A stretch of DNA of 64,000 nt, from NCBI GenBank assembly GCA_016182185.1, contig JACOXU010000002.1, forward strand, positions 22,874 through 86,873. Direction: 5' to 3'. Positions 20,855 to 22,299 of this stretch are shown here, one piece after another. The notes beneath the pieces were generated by a model. That model made no database searches and was not told the DNA's origin. It saw only the letters and a program-made list of their open reading frames with translations. Source of the stretch: Candidatus Levyibacteriota bacterium. Its GTDB lineage: Bacteria; Patescibacteriota; Microgenomatia; Levybacterales; UBA12049. A program made the translations under genes and the position numbers. Numbering within the stretch: the first letter of the stretch is position 1; every line of letters begins with the position of its first letter.

Positions 20855-22299
20855 TTAGTTTTAAGGGCAAAAAAATTGCAGTTATTGGTGCTGGAATAGA
20901 GGGCTTGGCAAGCGAGAAGTTTTTCAAGTCTCATGGAGCAGAAGTCACAGTTTTGGACCAAAAGCACGGGAAAGAATATTTAGATAATCTTGAAAAGTTT
21001 GATTTAGTAATTAGAAGTCCGGGAGTAAAGCTTGATCTTTTAAATCATCTAGCAAAAAATAAGATAACCTCACAGACGAAACTCTTTTTCGATCTTTGCC
21101 CGTGTCCGATTATTGGCGTAACCGGAACAAAGGGAAAGGGGACGACAGCTTCGCTTATTTACGAGATGCTGAAGAAACAGGGTTTTGATGCTTATCTTGG
21201 CGGAAATATCGGCCAGGCTCCGCTTGATTTTTTGGAAAAACTTAAAAAGGATTCGATCGCAGTGCTTGAATTATCCAGCTTTCAGCTTCAGGATTTGACT
21301 AAGAGTCCCTCCTTCGCTAAGGCTTCGGCGGGCAAGCCACATATTGCCGTAGTTCTTATGGTGACAAGCGAGCATCTGGATTATCACAAGGATACGTACG
21401 AATATGTAGATGCAAAGAGAAATATCTTACGTTTCCAAGCCCAAAGCGACTATGCAATTCTCAATAAAGATTATCCGGCGAGTAATGAGTCGGACATTCA
21501 TACAGAGGGACAAGTATTAAAGGTAAGCAGAGAAACTGAGGTTGAAGAGGGGTGTTTTGTAAAGGATGGAAAAATTTGGATAAGGATTGGCGCTGAGGTC
21601 GCTCGGGGTCCTGTCCCGAAATTCCTTCCCGCCAGTGCTCGCCTAGATGATGCAAAGCCTCAACGACTGCGCACTGTCGGGATCCCTTCCTTTCGTGCCA
21701 CCCCTCGCTCTATAGAAATTACGAGCACAAAGGAGATTCTTTTGCCAGGAGAACATAACTGGGAGAATGTTTGTGCGGCGGTTATGGCAGCATGGCTATC
21801 TGGAGTATCGAAGGCAAATATTGTCAAAGTTCTTAAAAATTTTAAAGGACTCCAGCACAGACTCGAATTAGTAAGAGAGTTAAATGGGGTTAAATATTAT
21901 GATGATTCTTTTTCGACCACACCTGAGACTGCAATTGCCGCAATTCAAGCCTTTAAAAATCCTGAAATTTTGATTTTGGGCGGGTCAGGCAAGGGAAGCG
22001 ACTTTACAGAACTTGGTCAAGTAATATCTAATGCAAAGAGCATAAAAGCTATTATTGGAATTGGAGAAGAATGGAAAAGAATTAAATCCCAAATCACAAA
22101 TCCCAAATCACAAATAAATTCCAAAATTCAAATTATTGAGGGTTGTAAAAATATGAAAGAGATCGTACGAGAAGCTTCTCAAATCGCAAAGCCCGGTGAT
22201 ATAGTACTTCTGTCGCCTGCCTGCGCAAGCTTCGGAATGTTTAAGAACTACAAAGACCGCGGGGAACAATTTAAAAAAGAAGTAGAGAAGTTCCTTTAA
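20851..22299 (+). CDS. murD: UDP-N-acetylmuramoyl-L-alanine--D-glutamate ligase
   Basis: 'IGVTGTKGKGTTASLIYEML' Mur-ligase P-loop; 'GGN' and 'GEHNWENVCAA' motifs; start overlaps murI. Carries an in-frame insert of about 42 aa (see 21589-21714). Confidence 0.85.
   Translation: MISFKGKKIAVIGAGIEGLASEKFFKSHGAEVTVLDQKHGKEYLDNLEKFDLVIRSPGVKLDLLNHLAKNKITSQTKLFFDLCPCPIIGVTGTKGKGTTASLIYEMLKKQGFDAYLGGNIGQAPLDFLEKLKKDSIAVLELSSFQLQDLTKSPSFAKASAGKPHIAVVLMVTSEHLDYHKDTYEYVDAKRNILRFQAQSDYAILNKDYPASNESDIHTEGQVLKVSRETEVEEGCFVKDGKIWIRIGAEVARGPVPKFLPASARLDDAKPQRLRTVGIPSFRATPRSIEITSTKEILLPGEHNWENVCAAVMAAWLSGVSKANIVKVLKNFKGLQHRLELVRELNGVKYYDDSFSTTPETAIAAIQAFKNPEILILGGSGKGSDFTELGQVISNAKSIKAIIGIGEEWKRIKSQITNPKSQINSKIQIIEGCKNMKEIVREASQIAKPGDIVLLSPACASFGMFKNYKDRGEQFKKEVEKFL
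21589..21714. repeat. GC-rich palindromic element inserted in-frame in murD (copy A)
   Basis: 126 nt (42 codons) of much higher GC than the surrounding gene. It starts with GGCGCTGAGGTCGCT, which is identical over 14 nt to the start of the insert at 29687, and ends with CCCCTCGCTCTATA. It has internal complementarity (gtcccga/tcgggat) and falls in a MurD loop position that is normally short. Confidence 0.4.
22084..22134. repeat. AT-rich short repeat aaatcccaaatcacaaatcccaaatcacaaataaattccaa, in-frame in the murD 3' part
   Basis: Encodes 'ITNPKSQITNPKSQINSKIQI'. Related copies at 3846, 40765, 43508 and 61511. Confidence 0.35.

Follow-up and report, generated by a model that had tools for sequence, protein, structure and literature searches.

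An in-frame GC-rich block in murD of a Levybacteria-like bacterium is very probably a copy of a dispersed palindromic repeat

Introduction

What is a GC-rich block of 42 codons doing in a loop of MurD that most related proteins keep short? The block lies at positions 21589-21714 (+) of a 64,000-nucleotide stretch of DNA from a Candidatus Levyibacteriota bacterium (assembly GCA_016182185.1, contig JACOXU010000002.1, positions 22,874 to 86,873). This whole stretch of 64 kb is called the window in the following. A sequence-only reading of the window had proposed that the block is a palindromic mini-element, that a related copy sits in a GT4 glycosyltransferase gene, and that both behave like the Rickettsia palindromic elements (RPEs), i.e., as selfish DNA inserted in frame into protein loops. 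Based on the results below, we conclude that the murD block is very probably one member of a family of GC-rich, non-coding palindromes dispersed in genomes of Levybacteria-like members of the candidate phyla radiation (CPR), an RPE-like selfish DNA.

Results

The block replaces a short turn of MurD

The host gene murD (20851-22299, +; 482 aa) was identified from the list of open reading frames (ORFs) and its translation. Its product is 100% identical to a MurD of Candidatus Levybacteria and matches Mur_ligase_M, Mur_ligase_C and MurD-like_N in Pfam, the middle-domain match ending at residue 230, right before the insert. The 126-nt block begins at position 21589 with codon 247, runs on without a stop codon and encodes the peptide GAEVARGPVPKFLPASARLDDAKPQRLRTVGIPSFRATPRSIE. 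GC content reaches 0.59 across 21580-21699 versus 0.38 (38%) in the whole window; thus, the description of the block as GC-rich and in frame was correct.

The extent of the block, which comprises the whole non-homologous segment, was determined from ortholog alignments, GC content and an AlphaFold model. In the alignments, its 42 codons take the place of a beta-hairpin turn of about five residues, a net gain of 37 residues. The span from EGCF to LLPGxHN measures 34 residues in 73 of the 120 closest MurD orthologs and 33 in five of them, versus 71 in the window; in one ortholog (L054), the turn reads ...IWSRIKGQEIEIID.... This agrees with the short loop that had been expected in homologs, and the alignments place the insertion point in a loop which most orthologs lack. 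In the AlphaFold model (mean predicted local distance difference test score, pLDDT, 79), the insert forms a coil between the strands at residues 241-246 and 286-292, with pLDDT <50 at residues 261-282. The insert is, therefore, predicted to be a disordered extension of the beta-hairpin turn.

Two inserts with related termini and different interiors

The second element is found in the GT4 glycosyltransferase gene (coding sequence 29116-30321, +; assigned by Pfam), between the domains Glyco_transf_4 (residues 13-189) and Glycos_transf_1 (residues 228-383). It was delimited by nhmmer as a palindromic element of 118 nt (29686-29803, +), in frame in the inter-domain stretch. The 14-mer GCGCTGAGGTCGCT forms the 5' terminus of both inserts (21590-21603 in murD and 29687-29700 in GT4, both +) in exact copies. 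These are the only two sites in 64 kb, even with two mismatches allowed, and two matches were seen in 0 of 100 dinucleotide shuffles of the window. At the 3' side, the inserts end with CCCCTCGCTCTATA in murD and CCCCGCGCTCATA in GT4, which share the form CCCC(T/G)CGCTC followed by (T)ATA; read from the sequence, the 3' terminus CCCCTCGCTC (21701-21710, +) in murD is similar to CCCCGCGCTC (29792-29801, +) in GT4. Both identities had been pointed out before and were reproduced here.

The interiors, however, belong to two different subfamilies, and only the termini are common to the two inserts. Hence, the earlier view of two related copies holds for the ends and fails for the bodies. nhmmer separates the core of the murD block (type A) from the GT4 element (type B), the latter family comprising five full copies. 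The GT4 insert represents a sister family, the termini of the two types being similar (5' GGGGTCC in type A versus GAGGTCG in type B; 3' CACCCC versus CTCCCC). Its layout is GCTGAGGTCGCTTAC-GAAAATTTTC...GAAAATTTT-GTAAGCTCCCCGC, with the stem arms AAAAATTTTCG (29704-29714, +) and CGAAAATTTT (29775-29784, +) of the consensus hairpin.

The type A core in murD measures 98 nt from anchor to anchor (21606-21703, +) and was recognized by nhmmer as well as by a covariance model, whose match in the window covers 21601-21716 with 112.7 bits. It follows the layout GGGTCCTGTC...TTCCTTCCCGCCAGTGCTCG...apical region...CGCACTGTCGGGA...CCTTCC...GCCACCC. In detail, the box GGGTCCTGTC (21606-21615) is followed by a variable stem (21616-21621, paired with 21691-21696 in a consensus hairpin with covariation), the box TTCCTTCCCGCCAGTGCTCG (21622-21641), the apical region (21642-21666), the segment CTGCGCACTGTCGGGATCCCTTCC (21667-21690) and, after the second arm of the stem, the end GCCACCC (21697-21703), all on the plus strand. 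The murD block, thus, reads as a composite of a type B-like 5' terminus and a type A core. The same 14-mer (at L139:9919), a type A core and CTCGCTC were also found at an unrelated metagenome locus (L139); accordingly, the junction is a recurring variant and no accident.

Type B is not confined to this gene. Copies starting with CTGAGGTCG were found in no ORF of at least 60 aa at three loci (L008, L013, L016), an orthologous GT4 copy is present in L017, and the 3' part of type B occurs in the murD loop of L008. A scan of viral contigs with the type B pattern gave no matches. The inter-domain stretch of GT4 varies in length and sequence among orthologs. In the window and L017 it contains type B, in L005 a short form of 41 nt and in L098 and L184 type A; other orthologs have none of the three. 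The GT4 proteins of L001 and L002 (400 versus 365 aa) were considered as a presence/absence polymorphism and rejected, the difference being due to an unrelated frameshift in an 8-nt tandem repeat: these near-identical strains differ by one unit of AACAATTT at about 20400-20440, and the shifted frame alters the C-terminus of GT4.

Type A copies are dispersed and keep the frame of their host genes

Metagenome contigs were scanned with a 35-nt degenerate type A box, which matched at least 120 stretches. Over all collected loci (2.2 Mb), nhmmer reported 136 matches, and 115 copies with both end anchors were retained after removal of duplicates. Their lengths range from 77 to 155 nt and fall into classes near 89, 98, 116, 119 and 134 nt. 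A copy was regarded as genic if it lies in a frame that is free of stops and stays open for 40 codons or more to either side, which applies to 74 of the 115 copies (64%); the other 41 lie outside genes. The host sequences are diverse and comprise 70 distinct ORFs with matches to 101 Pfam families, e.g., GT1/GT4 glycosyltransferases, class I aminoacyl-tRNA synthetases, Obg-type GTPases, carbamoyl-phosphate synthase, Mur ligases, topoisomerase I, ComEC and WecG. Two or three copies are present in single ORFs of L133, L136 and L121.

Anchor-to-anchor length modulo 3 falls into a single class in 65 of the 74 genic copies, but is spread 16/13/12 over the three classes in the other 41. Frame +1 is used in 62 of the 74 genic copies and gives a peptide rich in Gly, Pro, Ser, Ala and Arg (RGPVxxFPPASARS...LRAVGxPSxxATPR). 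Minus-strand frames account for 15 genic uses and frames +0 and +2 for none, though +2 is stop-free in 80 of the 115 copies. Counted by orientation, 61 insertions in genes are sense and 15 antisense. Genic copies persist almost only when the frame is kept, as had been anticipated from the two inserts of the window. The contrast between genic and non-genic copies fits selection against frameshifts and would be unexpected for an element excised from the RNA. We infer that the element is not removed but translated, the host protein tolerating it as a surface loop, and that the bias in frame and orientation probably reflects which insertions survived rather than where insertion took place.

Copies also lie next to genes. 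Among the murD loci of 80 GTDB genomes, type A is located directly 3' of murD in L019, outside any stop-free frame, and in L008 within an ORF of 450 codons that adjoins murD. Matches in this set were confined to loci whose MurD is 58-67% identical to that of the window, and the murD loci of Woesebacteria and Saccharibacteria in the set gave none. At L084, a copy occupies the space that separates a sortase gene from the gene following it; a copy in this position was miscalled as the 71-aa "protein" P0121, which a search with the insert peptide had brought up.

Some copies are young. Two copies in L114 are 97% identical, about 520 nt apart and have different flanks, those of L140 and L116 are 99% identical, and those of L098, L201 and L173 are 93-97% identical with unrelated flanks. 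Cores with 93-99% identity and unrelated flanks demonstrate recent copying in some genomes. Furthermore, elements are nested: in L086, the murD loop has a short B-like hairpin that encloses a type B element, and in L008 a type A copy harbors a short element. As identical inserts are present in independent ENA, JGI and NCBI assemblies, assembly chimeras are unlikely for the genic copies.

The element is a conserved hairpin

The sequence-only reading had also described the body as self-complementary. Folding of single sequences yields -45 and -37 kcal/mol, with minimum free energy z-scores of only -1.3 and -1.4 versus shuffles, so that a single sequence gives no significant signal. The hairpin becomes clear in alignments of several copies, where it is backed by covariation. 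Five type A copies in a MAFFT-based alignment share a consensus of 31 pairs with compensatory changes at 14 pairs, and five type B copies, aligned in the same way, share 30 pairs with compensatory changes at 11. From the five type A copies, a covariance model was then derived, to which 107 copies were aligned. In this alignment, 93.4% of the cells are paired versus 79.7% in column shuffles (reached in 0 of 500) and 32-47% when partners were slid; changes on both sides of a pair occur in 439 cells versus 144 expected. In one helix, all four Watson-Crick pair types (GC, CG, UA and AU) occur at similar frequencies. The 107-copy alignment is fitted to the model and thereby favors the structure; the separate MAFFT-based alignments, however, agree with it. 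The element is, thus, an imperfect hairpin with conserved GC-rich boxes and variable stems that stay complementary. In the five-copy table, G.U and A.C departures are about equally frequent, which, together with the presence of both orientations in genes, agrees better with a palindrome at the DNA level than with an RNA of the sense strand. No Rfam family matches the element.

The inverted repeats expected at the termini are present, the outermost conserved helix consisting of 5' GGGTCC paired with 3' CACCC. The conserved ends read (T)TGC|GGGTCC...CACCC|GCA(A) or GCTCG|GGGTCC...CACCC|CTCGC; i.e., aligned 5' ends show TTGC or GCTCG and then GGGTCCTG. In the 5' flank, T is weakly preferred at -3 (83 of 115 copies). 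The palindrome tends to continue into the flanks, with a flank-flank pairing score of 2.45 versus 0.71 +/- 0.09 for shuffled pairings, and in a minority of copies the flanks form a copy-specific stem of 7-11 bp. These inverted, copy-specific flanks beyond the conserved TGC/GCA ends may be taken as a lead, not as a hallmark of the family.

The murD copy is old, and its loop has been used repeatedly

The type A segment was found in the MurD proteins P0001, P0002, P0004, P0005, P0006 and P0110. In a rough neighbor-joining tree of MurD calculated without the loop, P0001, P0002, P0004, P0005 and P0006 fall into one clade, along with P0007, which has a basal loop, and two groups with 24-residue loops; P0110 carries type A, yet groups elsewhere. 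Accordingly, the insertion predates divergence to approximately 65-70% MurD identity, and the copy was later lost or reduced in some lines. The presence of the segment in orthologs, which the sequence-only reading had named as an argument against an insertion, is true for the clade with P0002 and P0004-6, while the segment is absent in 73 of 120. This does not overturn our reading because the segment is missing from most orthologs and occurs in many other genes. The 24-residue loops (P0003 and P0010 groups) were considered as excision footprints of type A and set aside; the likeness exists at the peptide level, and the single DNA sequence examined (L017) has no GC-rich remnant.

In other lines, the same murD loop holds type B-like inserts (P0034, P0022, P0009). 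Loops with yet other contents were observed in L014 and L015 (also P0048), where hairpin-repeat peptides read VIPAKAGIQ...IPDQVRNDK and SFPRKRESG...SGMT; we take these to resemble translations of dispersed repeats from many other bacteria. The MurD loop is a hot spot for several unrelated palindromes. Such reuse could mean that existing hairpins are preferred as targets, or else that the sites are merely permissive.

A separate short GC-rich element is located in frame in the same murD at 21307-21336 (+) and encodes PSFAKASAGK. It is absent from most MurD orthologs, and residues 152-159 have pLDDT <50. Its motif CCTTCGCTAAGGCTTCGGCGGGCAAG (PSFAKASxGK) occurs in frame at three different positions of MurD orthologs and in other proteins. 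The sites are murD of the window, two other sites in murD of L120/L001, and L094, L041 and L095/L008. In another frame the element reads PPSLKLRR, and in L008 it is nested within a type A copy.

Other features of the window

The gene order around murD is glutamate racemase, murD, a pilin-like gene and a class I tRNA synthetase, continuing with an ORF without Pfam match, FtsH, DUF975, a 5'-3' exonuclease, the GT4 glycosyltransferase and an MFS transporter.

Two GC hairpins, each about 21 nt long, were seen in frame in the ribonucleotide reductase gene (CCTGCCTCGCAGCAAGGCGGG, 10343-10363; peptide PASQQGG) and at the end of a PIG-L ORF (GCCTGCCTGCCGGCAAGCAGGC, 17553-17574). Similar peptides (SASRQGG, PASRQGG, PAWPAGR) occur at two different sites of MurD orthologs, which suggests a third family of mini-hairpins. 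Besides, an AT-rich repeat family consists of AAATCYCAAATC units. It lies in ORFs at 22077-22132 (murD), 29925-29985 (GT4), 40758-40796 and 2975-3013, and has no open frame at 3830-3898, 43496-43592 and 61513-61642; long inverted pairs are formed, e.g., by 61513-61561 with 61594-61642. Within genes, the units read NPKSQINSK or KNKILNIKNT, and murD and GT4 carry AT-rich and GC-rich elements alike.

Furthermore, an AdoCbl-II (cobalamin) riboswitch aptamer was detected at 11922-12002 (+; 45.8 bits) between the ribonucleotide reductase gene (9395-11890) and an ORF at 12062-12607. Two divergent tRNA-Met genes lie 80 nt apart at 19327-19396 (-) and 19476-19550 (+); the minus-strand gene is an ARAGORN call and falls below the Rfam tRNA gathering score. 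Finally, direct repeats with approximately 1-kb spacing (e.g., 57901/58910/59882 and 57360/58381/59371) extend across the adjacent ORFs 56457-58286 and 58279-60201, suggesting tandemly duplicated domains or paralogues.

Discussion

Evidence for and against a selfish palindrome

The reading as an RPE-like, selfish palindrome, which we hold with high confidence, builds on many copies at unrelated loci, in genes and between genes, which keep the frame where they lie in genes. The expectation formed from two inserts in one window was, thus, supported in a much larger sample. The element would spread by a mechanism that leaves no target duplication. It might act on the hairpin itself, for instance by a strand-specific nuclease for single-stranded DNA provided in trans; alternatively, template switching or gene conversion into existing hairpins could be involved. 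This is the weakest step of the proposal in either form. Spread directed by hairpins would also explain why elements are nested and why certain loops have been used more than once.

Several observations weigh against this reading or narrow it. First, the murD copy itself, judging from its distribution over the tree, is old and vertically inherited within one MurD clade, and is, therefore, not a recent insertion. The sample of this genome is 64 kb, in which one type A and one type B copy are present; as these have only termini in common, evidence of mobility comes from other genomes. The metagenome copies were picked by a strict pattern of the 5' half, so that the sample is biased toward well-preserved copies with an intact 5' box. 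Second, translation is judged from frame statistics, and searches with a peptide profile gave few significant proteins. One protein was found at E <= 1 in a set of 5.8 billion proteins, and a HMMER scan of 1.84 billion representatives gave 34 matches at E <= 1e-3, which confirms that proteins other than MurD carry the peptide; the low numbers result from the little statistical power of a 41-position profile. Third, no direct target-site duplication was detected in any of 112 copies at k = 3, 5, 6 or 8, and the flank matches at k = 2 and k = 4 stem from GC and CTCG within the element itself. Insertion boundaries are, therefore, set only by comparison with orthologs. Neither a mobilizing enzyme nor an autonomous partner was identified. 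Fourth, a T.G wobble in the most conserved helix (alignment columns 41/152; in the window approximately 21636 with 21673) is fixed in 103 of 107 type A copies, and a 2x2 internal loop is recurrent. The fixed T.G hints at a strand-specific constraint, which a purely neutral element would not need, and the long-term upkeep of the palindrome is not accounted for by the reading we favor.

Alternative explanations

One form which the favored reading might take is mobilization as single-stranded DNA by an HUH (Y1) enzyme, in the manner of REP/RAYT or IS200/IS605-like systems. We consider it possible, if rather unlikely. Fixed mismatches and internal loops in hairpins are features that HUH enzymes read, and the imperfect hairpin of type A is conserved with irregularities of this kind; the missing target duplication and the short conserved flanks TTGC/GCAA or GCTCG/CTCGC would also be in line with this mechanism. 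However, the alignments of copies and flanks show no evident GTAG or CGTC tag, the element measures 80-155 nt and not 20-40 nt, and the ends of IS200/IS605 are not inverted copies of each other. The orientation of non-genic copies relative to their neighbors is only weakly biased (13 versus 5, 19 mixed). The sole recombinase among ten scanned neighboring ORFs of the window is an Xer-like tyrosine recombinase, although Y1 and RAYT genes were not searched for.

It is also conceivable, though we find it doubtful, that the CPR palindromes spread by a structure-directed, duplication-free homing into existing hairpins. Homing of this kind would explain the nesting in apical regions, the same loops being hit by different families, and the continuation of the palindrome into the flanks. 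A strand-specific enzyme or intra-strand conversion would then actively preserve the hairpin and its fixed T.G. If true, the palindromes would form a distinct class of mobility and a significant driver of protein-length growth in CPR housekeeping genes.

A classical miniature inverted-repeat transposable element (MITE), i.e., a deletion derivative of an insertion sequence (IS) moved by a DDE transposase via its terminal inverted repeats and staggered cuts, would account for the small size, the lack of coding capacity of its own, the inverted termini and the dispersed and recent near-identical copies. We regard it as improbable nevertheless: the lack of target-site duplications argues against a DDE-type element, the whole element forms a hairpin and not the ends alone, and the flanks extend the palindrome rather than repeat directly. 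Moreover, the two half-element matches checked for flanked cargo, one of them cut by a contig end, revealed no longer element with these ends, in a check that was no systematic genome-wide search.

Even less credible is an element acting in RNA, either as a cis-regulatory or processing signal or in an intron-like manner, removed so that the protein never contains it. The hairpin is indeed very stable and covarying, and the conserved wobble is a G.U on the sense strand. Nevertheless, removal leaves no reason for the constraint on frame and stop codons described above, both orientations occur in genes, and the similar frequency of G.U and A.C departures is as expected for a DNA palindrome. The element is, in addition, far too small for a group I/II intron or an intein; the 42 codons match neither Pfam nor Rfam, and the frame constraint favors read-through.

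That the block is an ordinary lineage-specific MurD loop from a single local indel, with the GT4 likeness due to chance or a shared peptide function, is the least plausible explanation, and as a complete one it is refuted by the dispersed copies: the insert is orthologous within a MurD clade and both hosts tolerate stretches of variable length at these positions, but the same DNA is found outside ORFs of at least 60 aa or between called genes as well as in 70 unrelated ORFs, it is base pairing with compensatory changes and not the peptide that is conserved, antisense copies give quite different peptides, and the 14-mer is not expected twice in 64 kb by chance.

Implications

To our knowledge, RPE-like selfish DNA in essential genes has had essentially one textbook example, Rickettsia. 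A second and apparently unrelated system of this kind, abundant in public metagenomes and with recently copied members, would make comparative tests possible. It helps to explain the variation in protein length in CPR bacteria (MurD orthologs range from 426 to 530 aa, with one outlier of 700 aa that also matches PF01177, Asp/Glu racemase), the truncated Pfam domain matches at such sites, and short spurious ORFs such as P0121 called over inter-genic copies.

Comparison with known systems

We found no description of such elements in the literature on CPR/Patescibacteria among open-access papers and bioRxiv, in accordance with what the sequence-only reading had supposed; absence there is no proof. 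Among known elements, bacterial MITEs (Correia/NEMIS, ERIC, BOX and cyanobacterial families; PMC10969869) are likewise short, non-autonomous and dispersed, with inverted termini, and occasionally lie in frame. The CPR elements differ in having neither target-site duplication nor an identified parent IS, and in that the whole body is a covarying hairpin. Repetitive extragenic palindromic (REP) sequences and bacterial interspersed mosaic elements (BIMEs) with their RAYT transposases (PMC3733652) share the imperfect GC-rich hairpins, the high copy number and the lack of target duplication. REPs are 20-40 nt long, extragenic and tagged with GTAG/CGTC, in contrast to the CPR elements, which are longer, mostly genic in our sample and have no tag in the aligned ends. 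Palindrome-associated elements derived from IS200/IS605 have subterminal hairpins in direct orientation at both ends, insert 3' of a fixed tetra- or pentanucleotide and cause no duplication. Here, the lack of duplication fits and the 5' flank shows the weak preference for T at -3, whereas two ends that are inverted copies in a single hairpin do not fit. Mobile GC clusters and double-hairpin elements of fungal mitochondria are also GC-rich palindromes in an AT-rich genome and are sometimes in frame; they are organellar and shorter than the CPR elements.

The closest resemblance in behavior is to the RPEs, which are palindromic repeats of approximately 100-150 nt in several families, found between genes and in frame within unrelated housekeeping genes, with a preferred frame and compatible with the fold of the host protein (Ogata et al., 2000, summarized in PMC10969869). 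Like these, the CPR elements are palindromic repeats of similar size without coding capacity of their own, fall into several related families, and have inter-genic copies as well as in-frame copies in unrelated housekeeping genes with a conserved peptide and a preferred frame. They fit the host fold as surface loops, as far as checked in MurD and GT4, have no known mobilizing enzyme, and live in hosts with small AT-rich genomes. In contrast, they come from another phylum (CPR/Patescibacteria, Levybacteria-like), are strongly GC-rich within an AT-rich genome, and are nested, types A and B combining related termini with different interiors while the same loops are reused by different families. 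Since the different phylum and base composition make homology unlikely, we do not file them under RPE-1 to RPE-10 and liken them by behavior only. In parallel, then, two lineages with small AT-rich genomes would independently have had permissive loops of their proteins colonized by palindromic DNA.

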